From the NCBI RefSeq assembly GCF_003334255.1, contig NZ_QOWU01000085.1: a DNA stretch of 10,225 nt. One strand, written 5' to 3'. The position numbers and the translations under genes were made by a program. Below, one piece after another: positions 609 to 9,897 of the stretch. The notes beneath the pieces were generated by a model. The model had not been told where the DNA came from. It did no database searches and was given only the letters and a program-made list of their open reading frames with translations. The stretch's first letter is position 1. Every line of letters starts with the position of its first letter. This DNA comes from Escherichia coli. Its GTDB lineage: Bacteria > Pseudomonadota > Gammaproteobacteria > Enterobacterales > Enterobacteriaceae.

Positions 609-1691
609 ATGCGTAATTACGCAACAATTTCACCTCAGTTCTGGTTAGGCGATACAGGGCGAAAACTAAGGAAGTCTGGTCCGGAATGTATGGTAGTGGC
701 GTTGTATATGATGACCTCGCCTCATTCCAATATGCTGGGCCTTTATTACCTGCCTGTTTTGTACATTGCTCACGAAACCGGACTTGCTCCTGAAGGGGCT
801 TCTAAGGGGCTTCAAATGGCTTGCGAGGCTGGTTTTTGCAGCTATGACCATGATTCTGAGGTTGTATGGGTGCATGAAATGGCAGCATGGCAGGTTGGTG
901 AATCGCTGAAACCTGGCGATAACCGTTGTGCTGGGGTAAGAAATGAATATTCCGCGTTGCTGGAAAATCCTTTTTTATCATCCTTTTATGATAGATATAA
1001 GGATGATTTCCACCTGGATGTCAGACGTGAATCATGTCGGAAAATTGAAGCCCCTTCAGAGCCCCTTTCAAGCCAAGAACAGGAACAGGAACAGGAACAG
1101 GAAAGGGATAAAACCCTTCTGGTCCATGGCGAAAAAATCGCCACGGACCCACAGGGGGATTTTTGTCCTGTTCTGACTGAACGTCCAGGACCAGATGGCA
1201 CGACACCGGAAGCAGATTCCGGGCGTTGTGTGCAGCAGGTGCTGATCGTCGAACCGGAGCAACAACGCCAACCGCAGCAGCCTGAAGCCGATTCCGCGAT
1301 GAGCGGGAAGCCGATTGGGTTAACCCGGGCGATGCCGGGACCGTCTGCGGGACGAGTTGATTATCCTGACGTGTTCGAACGGGTCTGGCGTGAATATCCG
1401 CATCGGGCAGGGTCAAACCCGAAGAAATCCGCGTTCAATGCCTGGAGGGCCAGATTACGCGAAGGGGTGTCACCGGATGTCGTGCTGGATGGCGTGAGGC
1501 GTTACGCAAGATACCTGGAGGCTACCGGGAAAGCGGGAACTGAATTTGTTCAGCAGGCATCGACGTTTTTTGGCCCGAACAGGAATTTCGAAAATCCGTG
1601 GTCGCTGCCGAAGGCTGGCGCAGTCAGCCTGCGTTGCGTGAATCACATTTCTGAACCGGACACCGAAATTCCGCCGGGTTTCAGGGGGTAA
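609..1691 (+). CDS. Phage replication initiation protein (O-like functional analogue; resembles the so-called replication protein 15 type of lambdoid prophages)
   Basis: 360 aa with SD GAGGGG 4-5 nt before the ATG. It follows cII and is immediately followed by a DnaC-like loader gene. It contains an internal AT-rich segment with inverted and tandem repeats (origin-like) and an acidic (QE)n linker between two domains. The family assignment is from memory only. Confidence 0.6.
   Translation: MRNYATISPQFWLGDTGRKLRKSGPECMVVALYMMTSPHSNMLGLYYLPVLYIAHETGLAPEGASKGLQMACEAGFCSYDHDSEVVWVHEMAAWQVGESLKPGDNRCAGVRNEYSALLENPFLSSFYDRYKDDFHLDVRRESCRKIEAPSEPLSSQEQEQEQEQERDKTLLVHGEKIATDPQGDFCPVLTERPGPDGTTPEADSGRCVQQVLIVEPEQQRQPQQPEADSAMSGKPIGLTRAMPGPSAGRVDYPDVFERVWREYPHRAGSNPKKSAFNAWRARLREGVSPDVVLDGVRRYARYLEATGKAGTEFVQQASTFFGPNRNFENPWSLPKAGAVSLRCVNHISEPDTEIPPGFRG
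977..1007. repeat. Perfect 9-bp inverted repeat (atcatcctt / aaggatgat) with 13-nt AT-rich loop, inside the replication gene
   Basis: Read directly: atcatcctt-ttatgatagatat-aaggatgat, in an AT-rich stretch (about 960..1010) flanked by short direct repeats tcctttt(tt)at. Confidence 0.7.
1077..1106. repeat. Hexanucleotide tandem repeat (GAACAG)x4 plus one degenerate unit, in frame within the replication gene
   Basis: gaacag gaacag gaacag gaacag gaaagg, translated as the QEQEQEQE linker of the 360-aa protein. Confidence 0.9.
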
Positions 1692-1697
1692 TCAGCC

Positions 1698-2438
1698 ATG
1701 AAAAACATTTCGACAGGAGGGATTCTTGAACGGGTGCGCCGTCTGGCACCACCGCACGTGGCAGCACCGTTCCGGACGACCGACGAATGGCGGGAATGGC
1801 AACTGGCTGAGGGCCGGAAGCGCAGCGAGGAAGTTAACCGCCAGAATCACCAGACGCGGGTTGAAAAAATCCTGAATCGTTCGGGCATCCAGCCGCTTCA
1901 CAGGAAGTGCTCATTCGGGAACTACCGGGTGCAGAACGACGGTCAGCGCCATGCTCTGAGCCAGGCGAAATCCATTGTCGATGAATTGATGACCGGTTAT
2001 ACAAACTTCGTGTTCAGCGGGAATCCGGGAACCGGAAAAAATCATCTGGCGGCGGCTGTGGGTAATCGTCTGCTGAAGGCCGGTAAATCCGTGATAGTGG
2101 TCACCGTGGCGGATGTGATGAGCGCGTTACATGCCAGCTATGACGACGGACTGTCAGGGGAAAAATTTTTGCGTGAACTGTGCGAAGTGGACCTCCTGGT
2201 TCTTGACGAAATTGGCATCCAGCGTGAGACGAAAAACGAGCAGGTGGTACTGCACCAGATTGTTGACCGCCGGACGGCATCACTGCGCAGTGTCGGGATG
2301 CTGACAAACCTGAATCATGCCGCAATGAGCACGCTTCTTGGTGAGAGGATTATGGACCGGATGACCATGAACGGTGGTCGTTGGGTGAATTTTAACTGGG
2401 AGAGCTGGCGGTCAAACGTTGGACGTCAGGGTATGTGA
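1698..2438 (+). CDS. DnaC-like replicative helicase loader (AAA+ ATPase, IstB/DnaC family)
   Basis: 246 aa with Walker A GNPGTGKNHLAAA and Walker B LLVLDEIG. The start is 7 nt after the stop of the initiator gene, with SD AGGGGG upstream. This is the classic position of the lambda P analogue in phi80/Rac-type replication modules. Confidence 0.85.
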   Translation: MKNISTGGILERVRRLAPPHVAAPFRTTDEWREWQLAEGRKRSEEVNRQNHQTRVEKILNRSGIQPLHRKCSFGNYRVQNDGQRHALSQAKSIVDELMTGYTNFVFSGNPGTGKNHLAAAVGNRLLKAGKSVIVVTVADVMSALHASYDDGLSGEKFLRELCEVDLLVLDEIGIQRETKNEQVVLHQIVDRRTASLRSVGMLTNLNHAAMSTLLGERIMDRMTMNGGRWVNFNWESWRSNVGRQGM

Positions 2439-2463: not shown

Positions 2464-3234
2464 ATGGAAACCGTATTGCATGCACTGAAAGCGATGGGAA
2501 AAGCCAATTCTGTTGAACTGGCGGCGCGGCTTGATATCAGCCGTGAAGAAGTTCTCAACGAACTGTGGGAGCTCAAAAAAAATGGCGTTGTTGATAAAAC
2601 GGGTCACACCTGGTTTCTGGCTGTCGAAGGTGAAGCCGGGGTAACCGAAGAGCGGCCAGTAAAATCTGAAACACAGGATATGCTGACCGAAGAGGTCGCT
2701 CCAAAAGTTAGCGCTGACATGATGATTGAGTTTATCTCTCAGGAGGGGGCTAAAACCTGTGAAGAAATAGCGGGTAAGTTCGGAGTTACCACTCGCAAGG
2801 TTGCTTCCACGCTGGCGGTGGTAACCGCAACGGGGCGGCTGGCACGCGTTAATCAGAACGGTAAATTTCGTTACTGCATGCCGGGGGGTAATTTACCAGC
2901 AGATCCGAAAACCGCGCCGGTAACGGAAAATGATGGTAAGGCCTTTCCTCAGCCAGCAGGTGCTGCGTTACCAGTCCGGGAAGCCGCAACACAGGAAGAA
3001 ATTAAAACAGAAACTGTGGCGGACATTGTGCAGCCGTTGCCATCGTTTACCGAAACGCAAGCAGATGAGCTGATTTTTCCGTCCCTTCGCAGGGCAAACC
3101 TGGCGCTGCGCAGGGCGAAAAGTGATGTTCAGAAGTGGGAGCGAGTCTGCGCCGCGCTGCGGGAGCTGAATAAACACCGGGATATTTTCAGTTCGATTGC
3201 TGATATTCCGGTTCATTCACCGACAACAAAGTGA
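2464..3234 (+). CDS. Hypothetical phage protein with two winged-helix-like N-terminal modules
   Basis: 256 aa, ATG with GAGG 10 nt upstream. Two similar HTH-like segments (about residues 1-55 and 85-135) are followed by a low-complexity linker and a basic helical C-terminus. No family recognised. Confidence 0.6.
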   Translation: METVLHALKAMGKANSVELAARLDISREEVLNELWELKKNGVVDKTGHTWFLAVEGEAGVTEERPVKSETQDMLTEEVAPKVSADMMIEFISQEGAKTCEEIAGKFGVTTRKVASTLAVVTATGRLARVNQNGKFRYCMPGGNLPADPKTAPVTENDGKAFPQPAGAALPVREAATQEEIKTETVADIVQPLPSFTETQADELIFPSLRRANLALRRAKSDVQKWERVCAALRELNKHRDIFSSIADIPVHSPTTK

Positions 3235-3249
3235 TCTCCGGAGGTGCTT

Positions 3250-3681
3250 ATGACAAGAGCATTTACACCAGAAGAGCGGGAAAAAATTAAGGGGCTGATC
3301 GTGGAGTTCGTACGCCTTAACGGACGAGGCACGATTCGGCAGTTATCGGATGAAATTGGTGTCAGTCATGCGTCTGTCGGTCGTTTATGCATGGAGCTGG
3401 CCGCCAGTGGTGATGTTTACAATTCCGGTTACGGAGTATTCCCGTCTGAACAGGCTCGTAAGGACTGGCAAAATGCCCGCAAAAAACTCTCAAGGGCAAA
3501 GTCGAAGAAACCGGTTGTCGTTGATCCAGACCTTATCCGGGCATTACCAGATGGGGAAATACGGCGCTACGACAGACGCTACAACACAATTTGTCGCGAG
3601 TGCCGTAACAGCGAAACGATGCAGCGTGTGCTGGCATTCTGGCGAGGGAGTGCAGAGGGATTGATGTTCTCCCCGTCGTGA
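3250..3681 (+). CDS. Hypothetical HTH-containing phage protein
   Basis: 143 aa from ATG 3250 with SD GGAGG 5 nt upstream (the track ORF starts 6 nt earlier at a GTG). The N-terminus IRQLSDEIGVSHASVGRLCMEL is HTH-like; the C-terminus has a CxxC pair. Confidence 0.55.
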   Translation: MTRAFTPEEREKIKGLIVEFVRLNGRGTIRQLSDEIGVSHASVGRLCMELAASGDVYNSGYGVFPSEQARKDWQNARKKLSRAKSKKPVVVDPDLIRALPDGEIRRYDRRYNTICRECRNSETMQRVLAFWRGSAEGLMFSPS

Positions 3682-3690
3682 ATGACGGGG
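3671..3690. terminator. Hairpin between convergent genes (ccccgtc-gtgaat-gacgggg), overlapping the stop codon at 3679..3681
   Basis: 7-bp perfect stem with 6-nt loop, read directly. There is no clear U-tract on either strand, so its terminator function is uncertain. Confidence 0.35.
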
Positions 3691-3713
3691 GCTTACGTGT
3701 TCAGAAAAGTGAT

Positions 3714-4388
3714 TCATATAGAGGCTGAATCTGATCTTTTTTGTTCACGTCTGGCTTCCACCATTGCAGGCAGAGTGAAGGCGTAGACTAAAAACATTTC
3801 GGTAAAACTCAGGATCTGGCTTGCCTCAATTGGTGTGAAAACTTCATCTGTATGAACTGCTTTATTGGCATCAATTCGTACAATATGAGCCCATTCCTTC
3901 ATCTGTTCAGTGATCAGGCCTTTTTTGTAAATCATCTGAATACGTTGCGACAGCGATTCTTTTCCTGCTTCATCGCCGAGCAGTTTTTTCGTGGAGATAT
4001 CGAGGACTCTGCGACAAAGAATAACCACTGTGTCGTACCGCCTCCTCTGTAAATCCTCTTTTGCCTCAACAAAAGTACGGTCTGCAACCGGGGGCGTATA
4101 TTCTGGTGCGGTAATTTTTTTGACCACAGGATAGATCTTGCGGAAACGGTACTGGCTATTTCCTGAAATCAGAATATCGAGGTCTTTTTTCTGGCTTTCC
4201 GCCATGGGACCGTGATAGTGGTCTGATGGGATTTCAACAATAGCAACACCTCCTCGATGACAACTTCTGCATACAAAAGCGACGTTAAAAAAAGGTGTTT
4301 TTTCAATTTGTTTTTCGGCAAATGCCTCAATAACAGCTCGCTCTTTTAAACAGTGCGGGCATGTGATATCAAAGGAGACTAAACCCAT
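3714..4388 (-). CDS. Zinc-ribbon / DUF4145-like protein, candidate single-gene defence (abortive-infection-type) factor
   Basis: 225 aa from the ATG at 4388, with SD GAGGAA 5 nt upstream on the minus strand; the track ORF extends to 4460 without any SD. The N-terminus has CPHC...CRSC (4-Cys ribbon). The C-terminal ~100 aa (RRVLDISTKKLLGDEAG...IVRIDANKAVHTDEVFTPIEASQILSFTEMFLVYAF) matches my recollection of the DUF4145 consensus (R..GN.aaH followed by EA...L). It is on the opposite strand to flanking phage genes and in visibly lower-GC sequence. Confidence 0.7.
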   Translation of the reverse strand: MGLVSFDITCPHCLKERAVIEAFAEKQIEKTPFFNVAFVCRSCHRGGVAIVEIPSDHYHGPMAESQKKDLDILISGNSQYRFRKIYPVVKKITAPEYTPPVADRTFVEAKEDLQRRRYDTVVILCRRVLDISTKKLLGDEAGKESLSQRIQMIYKKGLITEQMKEWAHIVRIDANKAVHTDEVFTPIEASQILSFTEMFLVYAFTLPAMVEARREQKRSDSASI

Positions 4389-4632
4389 GGATATTCCTCG
4401 CGAAATTAAAGAAATTAACGAAATCATTGAGGTTACTGATCGCCCCGAGTTTACCCTCATGCGTCGTTATGAAACAGGAACCGACGAACAAAAATACATC
4501 ATGGTTGCAGCATTGGCTGTGATGGCGATAGAAAGGGAGCGAAGGGAAAAGGACGTAATGGTTATTCCTGAGAGAAATGATTCACCGGATTTGAGATGGC
4601 AGGAGCCGGAGTGGGATGTGGTAATCCGGTGA
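4387..4632 (+). CDS. Small acidic hypothetical protein (81 aa), divergent from the DUF4145-like gene
   Basis: ATG at 4387 with SD AGGAG 9 nt upstream, ending at a GC hairpin shared with the convergent antitoxin gene. Its start codon overlaps the minus-strand start inside the palindrome CCATGG. No family recognised; it could be spurious. Confidence 0.35.
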   Translation: MDIPREIKEINEIIEVTDRPEFTLMRRYETGTDEQKYIMVAALAVMAIERERREKDVMVIPERNDSPDLRWQEPEWDVVIR

Positions 4633-4653
4633 TTGATATTTCTCTGGGGTAAA

Positions 4654-4674
4654 GCGCCGCCAGAATGACGGCGC
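4654..4674. terminator. GC-rich hairpin (gcgccg-ccagaatga-cggcgc) between convergent genes
   Basis: 6-bp GC stem read directly. On the minus strand it is followed by TTTACCCC, so it may terminate the toxin-antitoxin transcript; the U-tract is weak. Confidence 0.3.
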
Positions 4675-4686
4675 GGTAGTGGAGAG

Positions 4687-4995
4687 TTAAACGAAGCGGA
4701 TCTGGAGTTTTTTCCCTGTAGCACGGGCGAATTTTTTCAGTGTGGCAAATGATGGGCCGCTTGTACCTGATGCAAGATTGCTTTCCATTCTGGTTATCGC
4801 AGTCGCTTTTGTTCCCATACGTTCAGCAACTTCAGCCTGGGTTAAGCCAGCTTCTTTTCGTGCTGCCAGCATTTCATCAAGTAGTGCGAATTCATCGGCG
4901 ATGGCGTCGTATTCTGCTTTTACTGCGGGGTTAGACAACATTTTTTCTACCATATCATCGTGTGTCATGGTAGGTGGGGTACGTTTACCAGTCAT
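4687..4995 (-). CDS. HTH (XRE-like) antitoxin of a type II toxin-antitoxin pair
   Basis: 102 aa with a strong SD AAGGAGG 6 nt upstream on the minus strand. The HTH GLTQAEVAERMGTKATAITRMES is preceded by a helical N-terminal region. Its start overlaps the 3' end of the upstream toxin gene by 11 nt. Confidence 0.8.
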   Translation of the reverse strand: MTGKRTPPTMTHDDMVEKMLSNPAVKAEYDAIADEFALLDEMLAARKEAGLTQAEVAERMGTKATAITRMESNLASGTSGPSFATLKKFARATGKKLQIRFV

Positions 4996-5326
4996 GCTTA
5001 ACCTCCTTCATTCTGGTTTCAGCTTTTCTAAGCTCGGCAGGTGGAGTTTTTTGCGTTTTCTTTACAAAGCTATGCAACATAATGATTCGCTTTCCTTTTA
5101 GCGTGCAGTAAAAAACACGCCCTATGCCTTCCGAGCCCTTAAGGCGGATTTCAAACAAACCGTCGCCAAATGCCTCTGTATGCGGGGAACCAAGATTAGC
5201 TCCGTAAATACGCATTTTCTCCGTGTACCGAATGTACCGGGCTTGTAAGGTCTCAGGAAGAGAAAGGATCTCAGCTTCAACCTCGTCACTGTAGTATTCG
5301 ATAATGTAGTTCATGAGAGTAAACAT
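4985..5326 (-). CDS. RelE/ParE-superfamily toxin (Gp49/HigB-like) of a type II toxin-antitoxin pair
   Basis: 113 aa from the ATG at 5326. The C-terminal half GRVFYCTLKGKRIIMLHSFVKKTQKTPPAELRKAETRMKEV fits the Gp49/HigB-type pattern. The toxin-first gene order and 11-nt overlap with the antitoxin are typical of HigBA-type modules. The GTG-initiated 42-codon extension in the track ORF is not expected for this family. Confidence 0.8.
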   Translation of the reverse strand: MFTLMNYIIEYYSDEVEAEILSLPETLQARYIRYTEKMRIYGANLGSPHTEAFGDGLFEIRLKGSEGIGRVFYCTLKGKRIIMLHSFVKKTQKTPPAELRKAETRMKEVKHDW

Positions 5327-5386: not shown

Positions 5387-5448
5387 CTTCGCACGCCAGC
5401 AAAATCTGGCGTCGGGATTAGGAACCCCGGATAGAAACCGCGACAGAG

Positions 5449-5470
5449 ACACGCCGCGAGCGTGTTTTTT
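5449..5470 (+). terminator. Intrinsic terminator (acacgc-cgcga-gcgtgt followed by TTTTT)
   Basis: 6-bp stem, 5-nt loop and T5 tract, read directly. It lies about 60-80 nt downstream of the + strand promoter, which would delimit a short transcript. Confidence 0.55.
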
Positions 5471-5633
5471 ATTGTCGTATGCACACGCACATCTGAATTA
5501 TGGTGGGGCGTATAGGGGAGCTGAAAAGCTCGCCGGTTGGTTTCCCGGTAGTTCCTAACCCTGTACGTCTCGCCACCCGATGATTAGGAACCTGACGGTG
5601 GTGATAGTTTAGAAACCACTCGAGGGCGTCATT

Positions 5634-6305
5634 ATGACAACTCAAGTTTCTGTTGAAACACTCTCCACGATTACTTACAAGCAGATCCCCGTTATCACTA
5701 CCGAACTTTTGGCGCACCTTTACGGCACAGAAGCTATTCGTATTCGCCAGAATCACCACGAAAACAAAGGTCGTTTCATTGAGGAAAAACACTTCTTCAA
5801 ACTTGAAGGTGAAACTTTACGTGAGTTCAAGCACAGAGTAGCTTTTAACTACTCTGTGAAAATTGCCCGTAACGTTCGCTCCCTCATCCTATGGACAGAA
5901 CGCGGCGCAGCCCGTCATGCAAAAATGCTCGAAACCGATCGGGCGTGGGAAGTGTTCGAAAAACTGGAAGACTGCTATTTCAGCCAGGGAAAAACAACAC
6001 AAACCGAACAGCAGTCGCAGATTCAGCCACAATTCACAGCCGAGGAAATCATCCTCCTTTGCTACATGCAACTCTGGATGGAAAAAGCCCAGGACCTTAA
6101 CAAGCAGCTGTACCCCATAATGAAAGAGCTGAACTCCTCATACACGAACAAGCTGTATGACATTGCGTTTGAGACTATCTACATGGTGACGAAGAACAGA
6201 GACGCGCTACTAAGGGAGGTAACACGTCTCGACATGTCAAGTTCCGTTATCCAGCGGGCCATGCCAATGCTGAAAAGCCTGCGGGCAAGACAATTTGAAT
6301 TCTGA
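5634..6305 (+). CDS. Roi-like DNA-binding protein (ORF6N-type N-terminal domain, antirepressor-like)
   Basis: 223 aa with SD GAGGG 7 nt upstream. The N-terminal region (TELLAHLYGTEAIRIRQNHHENKGRFIEEKHFFKLEGE...LILWTERGAARHAKMLETDRAWEVFEKL) resembles the ORF6N/Roi-type domain as I recall it. It sits just before ninB, as roi-like genes do in HK022-type nin regions. Confidence 0.55.
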   Translation: MTTQVSVETLSTITYKQIPVITTELLAHLYGTEAIRIRQNHHENKGRFIEEKHFFKLEGETLREFKHRVAFNYSVKIARNVRSLILWTERGAARHAKMLETDRAWEVFEKLEDCYFSQGKTTQTEQQSQIQPQFTAEEIILLCYMQLWMEKAQDLNKQLYPIMKELNSSYTNKLYDIAFETIYMVTKNRDALLREVTRLDMSSSVIQRAMPMLKSLRARQFEF

Positions 6306-6359: not shown

Positions 6360-6770
6360 ATGAACCAGACTATCTTCCTCCGAAGTAAGCAGCAGCAACA
6401 ATTCGCCATTAACGCCATCCTTGCAACAACTCTCGATAAAGACAAACCCGTTACGATCCGCATCACCGATTACAAGCGGAATCTCGATCAAAATGCCAAA
6501 TTTCACGCGATGGTCGCTGATATCTCCCGACAGGTTCAGTGGTGCGGCAGATGGCTAAAACCAGAACAGTGGAAAGTTTTGTTAATCAGCGGTCATGCCG
6601 TGGCGACAAAACAGGAAGCTGATGTTTTGCCAGGTCTTGAAGGTGAATACGTCAATATCCGCGAAAGCAGTGCGCAAATGAGCGTGAAGCGTATGGCAAG
6701 CCTGATTGAGTACACAACATCCTGGGCCGTGGATCAGGGTGTCAGATTTACCGACAGGAGGTACGAATGA
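6360..6770 (+). CDS. ninB: NinB (Orf family recombination mediator)
   Basis: 136 aa. The motifs [32 protein letters not shown] parallel lambda NinB (SLDQNRKLWACLGDVSRQVEWHGRWLDAESWK) as I remember it. SD GAGGG upstream. Confidence 0.8.
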
Positions 6771-9068: not shown

Positions 9069-9383
9069 TCCAAACTGAGCCGTAGCCTCTGGGTGTCCTG
9101 AATTCATCAGTGATAGTTACGCTGCGGCCTTCTACATACGATTTTTGTGAAAAGCGGGTGGCAAGAGGCTGCGAAATTTTTAAATACCTCACAATTCCAC
9201 AGCTTGATGATTGTCTGGCTGCCGGAGAATTTGTTAAAAATTGCATCGCGTGGTGAATCCCCCTCAGCGGCGGGGCATCTGGCAAAGTGTATGATCCAGC
9301 GAACATGCAAATTCAGTAGCCAGGCTGAATTTACCGGGAGGCACCTGGCACCATGCGACAGACAGAAATTAGGCTATACTTCA

Positions 9384-9406
9384 GCCCCTCTCCGGAGGGG
9401 CTTTTC
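9384..9406 (+). terminator. Intrinsic terminator of unit 1 (gcccctc-tccg-gaggggc followed by TTTTC)
   Basis: Perfect 7-bp GC-rich stem, tccg tetraloop and T tract, read directly. Confidence 0.75.
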
Positions 9407-9596
9407 TGTGCAGGATGTGTCACAGTTTCCTGAATTCTGAGTACTGTCCTGTTACTCAGGGTGCTATATTTTCTGACGTGATGAAAGTCTGCCGGAAGGC
9501 GGAACGTATCGGAAATGACCCAGTAGAGAAAACGTTGACTCAGATACCGATGCTGAGTTACCGGGAAACCGGCATCACATGACCGCTATCCTTCCA

Positions 9597-9619: not shown

Positions 9620-9866
9620 ACTGCAGAAAACAGTTTTCCCGTAAAATGCCACGTTACTCACAATTCAGGCTGGCGATTATTGTCTGGCCAGCGGGAAGTT
9701 TGTTAAAAAAATATGGCATGGTGAATCCCCCTGTGCGGAGGGGCATATCAGCGACAGGTGTTTGGTCACACCCCTTATCCTTTCTGGTGCGGGTTCAGGT
9801 GCTGATACTGAACTCACCGGGAGGCACCCTGCACCATGCATGAACGGTACATAGCGCTACTCTCCA

Positions 9867-9890
9867 GCCCCTCTCCGGAGGGGCTTTCTT
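9867..9890 (+). terminator. Intrinsic terminator of unit 3 (gcccctc-tccg-gaggggc followed by TTTCTT)
   Basis: Stem and loop identical to the unit 1 terminator, read directly. Confidence 0.75.
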
Positions 9891-9897
9891 GTTGGAT

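Follow-up and report, generated by a model that had tools for sequence, protein, structure and literature searches.

What maintains two genes whose start codons overlap on opposite strands, and does the smaller of the two encode a protein at all? The question is raised by a stretch of Escherichia coli DNA of 10,225 nucleotides (nt) from contig NZ_QOWU01000085.1 (assembly GCF_003334255.1), in the following referred to as the window, which is the early-right (pR) operon of a lambdoid prophage resembling Shiga toxin (Stx) phages. Here, a minus-strand gene coding for a protein with a DUF4145/HEPN domain and a small plus-strand open reading frame (ORF) form a two-gene module, located in the lambdoid accessory-gene hotspot between the replication genes and ninB. 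An initial annotation of the sequence had described the small ORF as a possible partner or regulator of the DUF4145-like protein, or as simply spurious. We find that the small ORF is a real, conserved protein-coding gene. By analogy to the Tha-Ith system of Staphylococcus aureus prophages, we propose that the pair combines a prophage HEPN defence gene with a small self-immunity protein, a reading to which we assign a probability of roughly 0.4.

Shared start codons and embedded ribosome-binding sites

The module and its start region consist of the following features.

3714-4388, minus strand: DUF4145 gene, 224 amino acids (aa), an antisense insert in the operon
4387-4632, plus strand: small ORF, 81 aa, on the strand of the early-right operon
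4386-4389: CATG common to both start codons (plus-strand ATG at 4387-4389, minus-strand ATG at 4388-4386)
4373-4377, plus strand: Shine-Dalgarno (SD) sequence AGGAG of the small ORF, 9-nt spacer, antisense of DUF4145 codons 4-6 (V-S-F)
complement of 4394-4399, minus strand: SD sequence GAGGAA of the DUF4145 gene, 5-nt spacer, antisense of small-ORF codons 3-5

Both start codons lie inside a single CCATGG at 4385-4390, and the coordinates of the initial annotation all hold. The genes overlap head to head by 4 nt. The longest minus-strand ORF extends to 4460 (248 aa). In an alignment of 26 DUF4145 homologues M1 is invariant and the N-terminus MG[LIM] is conserved; therefore the true start of the DUF4145 gene is 4388. 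The overlapping pair is annotated likewise in RefSeq/PGAP and in phage records.

The arrangement is not confined to E. coli. Among 112 loci gathered with the DUF4145 alignment, CATG is found at the DUF4145 start in 80, including loci of Photorhabdus (L028) and of a metagenome-assembled genome (MAG) of Zoogloeaceae (L029). From the shared CATG open 41 distinct intact small ORFs with a length of 54-131 aa, corresponding to 20 clusters below 85% identity. The pair occurs in Escherichia, Cronobacter, Serratia, Tatumella, Rosenbergiella, Enterobacter, Photorhabdus and the Zoogloeaceae MAG. As to the palindrome emphasized initially, its CATG core is conserved, whereas the hexamer is incidental, reading TCATGG in close relatives and CCCATGA in other genera.

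The ribosome-binding site of each gene is located within the first ~5 codons of the other gene. A purine-rich motif precedes the start of the DUF4145 gene by 5-10 nt in 14 of the 20 lineages, and an SD-like motif (GAGG/GAGA) precedes the small ORF in 15 of them. Codon 4 of the small ORF is subject to synonymous constraint, with serine encoded by TCC (antisense GGA) in 7 of 8 lineages (p = 7e-6).

A similar sharing of signals is observed at the other end of the small ORF. In all 43 loci with an identified ninB, this gene and the small ORF are on the same strand; in 22 of them, the two adjoin or overlap. Codons 51-53 of the small ORF (D-R-R) read GAC AGG AGG in most lineages, again a synonymous constraint; in other genera this sequence is the SD sequence of ninB, whose start follows after 5-8 nt and overlaps the end of the small ORF. 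For example, locus L020 reads GAAAGGAGGAATTGTG at the small-ORF end and ninB ribosome-binding site. Wedged between the DUF4145 gene and ninB, the small gene has signals in common with each of them.

The small ORF is a conserved protein-coding gene

The small protein consists of a conserved core of ~55 aa (..[SN][DE]I....L...[DE]RPEFTL.QRYE.....QK..FV.ALIGKLIEQDR) and, in E. coli, of a specific C-terminal tail (about residues 56-81) that is acidic and disordered and tolerates a frameshift in two loci. The initial description as acidic is true of the window copy, with a net charge of -7, but does not extend to the family as a whole, which is near neutral; the acidity is that of the E. coli tail. 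A sequence comparison of this tail with ninB, of which it could be a remnant, gave no similarity.

The protein matches phrog_8371, a family with no known function, with residues 1-81 of 81 (E = 7e-56). No match was obtained in Pfam (with the single sequence and with the alignment), NCBIfam, PADLOC or PDB profiles, nor with Foldseek for the predicted model in PDB and BFVD. A word-indexed protein search returned copies from E. coli and Shigella only, with at least 78% identity (at least 91% for most E. coli copies). The resulting impression of an orphan ORF was overturned by an exhaustive HMMER search of 1.84 billion representatives, which found three remote homologues with 43-52% identity; the contigs of all three also have an opposite-strand DUF4145 gene whose start coincides with that of the small ORF. 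Homologues with 35-50% identity keep the frame open. The family is probably under-annotated: in L013-L016, a small ORF of 68 aa was found by translation at 3799-4002 (minus strand), where it is uncalled and listed as an intergenic gap of 161 nt.

The substitution pattern is that of a protein-coding gene. Across divergent pairs, the proportions of synonymous and nonsynonymous differences are about 0.74 (pS, saturated) and 0.31 (pN), corresponding to a pN/pS of 0.42. The other five frames have values of 0.58-1.48, four of them 1.0-1.5 and one antisense frame 0.58. An AlphaFold2 model built from a 29-sequence alignment predicts helices at residues 5-16, 20-30 and 33-57, with block means of the predicted local distance difference test (pLDDT) of 93-95 over residues 11-50.

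One could dismiss the 81-aa frame as having arisen by chance, or as an annotation error in the stretch that forms the DUF4145 5' leader; we give this reading a negligible probability. It could draw on the narrowness of the family at high identity, with most E. coli copies nearly alike, on the weak ratio of nonsynonymous to synonymous substitution rates (dN/dS) within E. coli, and on the tolerated C-terminal frameshift. These points are outweighed by a frame that stays open in 41 distinct versions at 35-50% identity, by the difference in pN/pS to four of the five other frames, by the confident fold prediction, and by the lineage described below that rebuilt the N-terminus with its own SD sequence and GTG start. 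The chance-ORF reading is effectively refuted. The initial annotation had proposed to examine conservation and codon-level selection of the frame, and on both counts its option of 'simply spurious' has to be dropped in favour of a folded protein, as predicted, under purifying selection.

The DUF4145 protein has a zinc-ribbon HEPN architecture

The 224-aa protein starts with a Cys4 zinc ribbon and ends with a DUF4145/HEPN domain, the two being joined by a variable linker. Residues 118-197 match Pfam DUF4145 (E = 8e-9), a HEPN ribonuclease (RNase) family (PMC3710099). The full-length protein matches phrog_1305 (E = 1e-63), whose label 'DNA binding protein' is unsupported for this gene. Invariant in the 26 homologues are C10, C13, C40 and C43 as well as the motif R171-x-D173-x-N175-xxx-H179. 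The zinc-ribbon profile weakly resembles RPB9 zinc ribbons (E ~0.2), the AlphaFold model has beta strands at residues 4-52, and the best credible fold matches of the model are the HEPN toxins 5yep and 7ae6 (probability 0.85-0.97). The pN/pS of the gene is 0.36, not far from the value of the small ORF. We regard the protein as a predicted RNase with a putative role in defence.

The two halves of the gene differ in their conservation. In L011, an E. coli DUF4145 allele with 71% overall identity, the nucleotide identity is 47-68% over window positions 4027-4266 and rises to 80-82% by 4267-4386 beside the start; the HEPN side is ~98% identical and the small ORF ~99%. Among E. coli alleles, the zinc-ribbon/linker half (4027-4330, minus strand) is hypervariable, as would fit a diversifying specificity domain of the kind reported for the RNase RAZR discussed below.

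Co-occurrence of the two genes

A search of IMG/VR with the small-protein alignment gave 58 loci, and in 50 of them a DUF4145 gene is adjacent. The remaining 8, without it, constitute one E. coli lineage of phages from Shiga toxin-producing E. coli (STEC), represented also by L004/L005. In this orphan lineage, the homology starts exactly at window position 4391; in place of the shared CATG, these copies have acquired a different N-terminus (MNNKIN...), which is served by a separate GAGG and initiated at GTG. The orphan protein of STEC1589-type phages has 85 aa. Some orphan copies of STEC-type phages are interrupted or truncated to 48 aa (L141, 1480-1743; protein P0019).

In the reverse direction, where a DUF4145 homologue is located elsewhere than in the early operon, the small ORF is absent or reduced to a remnant. 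In L051 (2995-3663, an 'MG..' member), L094 (3001-3639) and a 212-aa 'MAM..' clade, the DUF4145 gene is located between the lysis genes and terS. These late-region copies are antisense to the late operon, have no small partner and constitute a second hotspot of the same putative defence gene. In L072 (2176-2835), the DUF4145 gene adjoins integrase/excisionase genes, and the small-ORF remnant is degraded (18-45 codons, GATG instead of CATG); the module appears to have relocated, with the partner lost afterwards. Judged from these contexts, the small ORF is retained only where expression from the early lytic operon is possible.

The strong two-way co-occurrence and the conserved start overlap support the earlier suggestion that the small protein is a partner or regulator of the DUF4145-like protein, a partner whose putative action is considered below. 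According to a Mantel analysis, the divergence of the small protein correlates more closely with that of the HEPN half (r = 0.79) than with that of the zinc-ribbon half (r = 0.58), though the latter is physically closer. This pattern, together with a small ORF that is unchanged where the zinc-ribbon half was swapped (L011), fits an inhibitor contacting the conserved HEPN half.

Promoters and transcription signals

Two further features concern the transcription of the DUF4145 gene.

4491-4464, minus strand: candidate promoter of the DUF4145 gene, within small-ORF codons 26-35
4654-4676, minus strand: G+C-rich hairpin between the higA stop and the small-ORF stop, followed by UUUA

It had been noted initially that, with no intergenic space, each promoter would have to lie within the other coding region or expression would be mutually exclusive. 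For the small ORF this does not apply: it is located on the strand of the early-right operon, in the path of pR, and can thus do without a separate promoter within the DUF4145 gene. For the latter the argument stands wherever ninB directly follows the small ORF, as is the case in several genera; there, the promoter must be inside the small ORF or beyond it. The candidate in the window consists of a -35 element TTGTTC (4491-4486), a 16-nt spacer and a -10 element TAACGA (4469-4464), and is weak because the -7 T is missing. The pattern TTG(A/T/C)TC-16-TA(A/T)CGT recurs at -103 to -76 in L017, L021, L024, L052, L060, L076, L079 and L085, and the codon for Q35, antisense to the TTG of the candidate -35, is CAA in 37 of 38 cases. 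AT-rich promoter-like matches abutting the ATG were rejected, as they are explained by the N-terminal Asn-Ile codons of the small ORF.

Synonymous sites of the small ORF are unusually conserved across lineages at codons 22, 30, 35, 39 and 44 (in the window, for example, 4474-4476 and 4489-4491): Thr30 is ACA in 10 of 10, Phe22 and Phe39 are TTT in 14 of 14, Gln35 is CAA in 16 of 17, and Ile44 is ATA. Among these sites, the candidate promoter accounts for Gln35 only.

The hairpin at 4654-4676 folds on the minus strand with -19.1 kcal/mol (z = -3.5; none of 200 shuffles is as stable) and is conserved throughout the E. coli contexts. As a possible partial terminator, it would shield the DUF4145 gene from read-through of the neighbouring higBA genes. 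For E. coli, an alternative source of DUF4145 transcription is higBA read-through past this hairpin. An Rfam scan of 3700-4700 gave no match.

Relation to known systems

The closest architecture is that of RAZR (ring-activated zinc-finger RNase, PD-T7-4), an abortive-infection RNase of 219 aa with catalytic residues R146/H154 (Zhang et al., Nature 2026, PMC13017515; PDB 9y9c). Its specificity resides in the Cys4 zinc-finger domain, by which ring-shaped phage proteins are recognised; RPB9 zinc ribbons are also cited as relatives of this zinc finger (PMC13017515). Both proteins, with a length of ~220 aa, begin with a Cys4 zinc ribbon that a linker connects to a DUF4145/HEPN domain at the C-terminus; the catalytic R and H are 8 residues apart in both (R171/H179 here, R-x7-H), and the zinc-ribbon half is the most variable part of either. 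However, the PD-T7-4 model of PADLOC gives only a partial match to the window protein (E = 0.0022, 15.5 bits, residues 85-183), 9y9c matches with E = 0.1, and a hidden Markov model of the window's DUF4145 clade retrieves no canonical RAZR locus at E<=1e-5. RAZR is also a solo gene downstream of an integrase and has no small partner, whereas the DUF4145 gene is antisense in the early operon with a conserved partner. With sequence similarity this marginal, we refer to the protein as RAZR-like in architecture rather than as a member of the RAZR family.

The precedent for the proposed function is Tha-Ith of Staphylococcus aureus prophages, in which the 66-aa Ith protein inhibits a tail-activated HEPN RNase that would otherwise block the prophage encoding it (Rostol et al., Nat Microbiol 2024, PMC11087260). 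Expression of the two is mutually exclusive, with defence on in lysogeny and off in lytic growth (PMC11087260). Both modules comprise a prophage HEPN gene and an overlapping small-protein gene on the opposite strand, with lysogenic and lytic units antisense to each other. The topology is inverted: tha is part of the cI operon and ith is the antisense insert, whereas in the window it is the HEPN gene that is inserted antisense, into the lytic operon. Likewise, the overlap in Tha-Ith is tail to tail and spans 64 nt (80alpha), as compared to head to head and 4 nt. Inhibition has been demonstrated for Ith and is predicted here.

A HEPN defence at the same lambdoid hotspot is HepS of Gifsy-1, for which the problem of self-targeting is documented (Sargen et al., Nature 2026, PMC13043305). 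HepS is from another HEPN family: its Rx4-6H motif is found at R100-H105, it has neither zinc ribbon nor partner gene, and self-targeting is avoided by a non-triggering tail-tip variant instead of an inhibitor. In phage lambda, Rex exclusion is relieved by ren, a pR-operon gene located directly after P. BstA-aba is a prophage abortive defence with a cognate self-sparing element (cited in PMC11087260). Both Rex/Ren and BstA-aba combine, as we propose here, an abortive defence of the prophage with a cognate element that spares its own lytic cycle. In neither are start codons shared; aba is a DNA element inside bstA and not a protein, and Ren is unrelated in sequence, with rexAB located elsewhere.

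DS-38 is described as a validated E. coli defence protein with a HEPN domain and a zinc finger that differs from the one of PD-T7-4 (DefensePredictor preprint, 10.1101/2025.01.08.631726). It may belong to the same family as the window protein, since the module-carrying phages PhiR5_2 and PhiR12_3 come from strains of the E. coli reference collection (ECOR). If it is the same gene, it was treated as a single-gene unit.

A putative defence and self-immunity pair

We suggest the following sequence of events. A zinc-ribbon HEPN RNase would be made in the lysogen and would abort infection by other phages. The small protein would be made only when the early lytic operon is transcribed, that is, upon induction or upon infection by a phage carrying the small ORF. 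It would then neutralise the cognate HEPN protein already present, before late proteins appear that might trigger the latter, and the prophage's own lytic cycle would be spared. Read-through from pR, antisense across the DUF4145 gene, would in addition silence this gene at the level of transcription. In STEC phages, the orphan small ORF would then act as an anti-defence gene. The reality of the small gene, the conserved pairing with its CATG overlap, the strand logic, the embedded ribosome-binding sites and the domain architecture are directly supported. Defence activity, timing of expression and inhibition by the small protein are assumed by analogy, and mutually exclusive expression of the two genes is plausible on the same grounds. 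A more specific version is put forward with less confidence and remains tentative: a life-cycle switch, in which the HEPN RNase would be armed in the lysogen and the new family of ~55-aa three-helix proteins would be its dedicated inhibitor, expressed from the early lytic operon only.

Several observations weigh against the defence and self-immunity pair. The DUF4145 gene survives where the small ORF is decayed, as in L053, L054 and the L072 group, and a whole clade of DUF4145 genes lacks the small ORF; the partner is therefore dispensable in some settings. RAZR and HepS operate as single genes. A comparison with Tha-1 and Ith-1 by hhalign gave a probability of 0.2 for both, that is, no homology. 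A linker-fused AlphaFold run with paired alignments gave no sign of a complex (predicted template modelling score 0.54, small-protein pLDDT below that of the solo model); such a run cannot model HEPN oligomers, and we treat its outcome as uninformative. Position weight matrix scores of the candidate DUF4145 promoter are no better than those of shuffled controls, and a scan of 4391-4700 for consensus promoters found nothing. Within E. coli, dN/dS of the small ORF is near 0.5, with ~15 nonsynonymous and ~10 synonymous changes counted by hand, a divergence of about 25 changes that is too small to decide. Its C-terminus, finally, tolerates a frameshift.

Three alternatives accept the small ORF as a gene and assign it a different role. 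It might be an independent accessory gene of the early operon (nin region), linked to the DUF4145 gene only through the shared start and ribosome-binding-site sequence, which would leave no neutral recombination site. We consider this unlikely, although it is the strongest of the three. The lack of intergenic space, the ribosome-binding sites each within the other gene and the translational embedding of the small ORF upstream of ninB are in accordance with such a linkage, as are the persistence of the small ORF without DUF4145 in one E. coli lineage and the functioning of DUF4145 elsewhere without the small ORF. Yet recombination junctions do exist, exactly at 4391 in L004/L005 and inside the DUF4145 gene in L011, hence the linkage is not physically forced. 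Moreover, outside the one lineage, the small ORF was never found in DUF4145-less lambdoid phages among the IMG/VR loci, where a ninB-associated gene would be expected, and it decays once DUF4145 leaves the early operon. That the small protein regulates DUF4145 expression is somewhat less probable still. It would bind to the promoter or 5' leader located in its own coding sequence, or act via the complementary translation-initiation regions. The conserved pairing is compatible with this role, the DUF4145 promoter and leader must extend into the small ORF in all cases in which ninB comes directly after it, several synonymous sites of the small ORF are unusually conserved, and the predicted three-helix core could in principle bind nucleic acid. 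But neither a helix-turn-helix nor a ribbon-helix-helix signature was obtained from Pfam, PDB and BFVD, the third and long helix has a hydrophobic instead of a basic character, and a regulator produced by the lytic operon alone cannot act on DUF4145 protein that is already present in the lysogen.

A toxin-antitoxin system, with HEPN as constitutive toxin and the small protein as antitoxin, both expressed in the lysogen, is suggested by the frequency of HEPN domains among toxins, by the fold matches, the best of which are the HEPN toxins of HEPN-MNT systems, and by a small, tightly linked pair located among other toxin-antitoxin modules. We consider it very improbable. The genes are divergent and do not form a co-transcribed bicistronic operon; the small ORF is located, without a recognisable promoter, in an operon that is repressed in lysogens, and its product has neither an MNT nor another known antitoxin domain. 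RAZR and HepS are non-toxic until triggered. Intact DUF4145 genes with a decayed or absent partner (L051, L053, L054, the L072 group and the 212-aa clade) would be lethal if the product were a constitutive toxin; the toleration of the HEPN gene without the small ORF therefore argues against a classical antitoxin.

Genomic context

Over the 1,001 bases compared (3690-4690), the window is identical to E. coli strain G1/2 (100%) and 96% identical to phage PhiR5_2 (PV340546). The remaining genes of the operon are as follows.

609-1691, plus strand: O
1698-2438, plus strand: DnaC-like P
2464-3234, plus strand: DUF1627 gene
3244-3681, plus strand: DUF977 ('Ren-like') gene
4687-5314, minus strand: HigBA-like toxin-antitoxin pair, an antisense insert in the operon
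5634-6305, plus strand: ORF6N antirepressor
6360-6770, plus strand: ninB, followed by further nin genes

The minus-strand inserts have a GC content of 43-47% (43% for the DUF4145 gene) as compared to 52-55% for the replication genes, a low content that is typical of morons. The HigA/HigB-like pair and the small ORF converge. The slot of this pair is taken, in related E. coli prophages, by other families (RelE/HTH, TumE/HVO_A0114, or HigA plus ParD), and hence is a site of cassette exchange whose left border is the conserved hairpin at 4654-4676. Another G+C-rich hairpin with 7 bp (3671-3690, CCCCGUC...GACGGGG) extends across the stop codon of the DUF977 gene, within the 32-nt gap of the convergent DUF977 and DUF4145 genes, and may terminate transcription in both directions.

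The ORF6N antirepressor gene is closely preceded by Rfam matches to isrK (5393-5470, plus strand, 69 bits) and C4 antisense RNA (5496-5580, plus strand, 66 bits), an arrangement that looks like the P1/P7- or Gifsy-type antisense-RNA control of an antirepressor. The small RNA family STnc100 is present in two full-length copies ~470 nt apart (9218-9411 and 9687-9896, plus strand; 139 and 130 bits).

Implications

Prophage abortive-infection systems must spare their own prophage, and few solutions have been described: Ith for Tha, aba for BstA and a trigger variant for HepS. A prophage HEPN defence with a cognate small partner is of a known kind; the conserved head-to-head overlap of the start codons is unusual. 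Divergent genes with common start codons and mutually embedded ribosome-binding sites are a rare architecture, which is conserved across genera here and in which the small ORF has been missed by gene callers in many contigs. With the function of the small protein assigned by analogy, the module would be a genetically tractable E. coli/lambdoid example for the RAZR-type zinc-ribbon HEPN architecture, and would supply a candidate natural inhibitor of zinc-ribbon HEPN RNases. If the life-cycle switch is true, only one of the two genes would be expressed at a time, owing to the common CATG and to ribosome-binding sites that each lie within the other gene, and the orphan small proteins of STEC phages would be the first known anti-defence proteins against RAZR-type systems.

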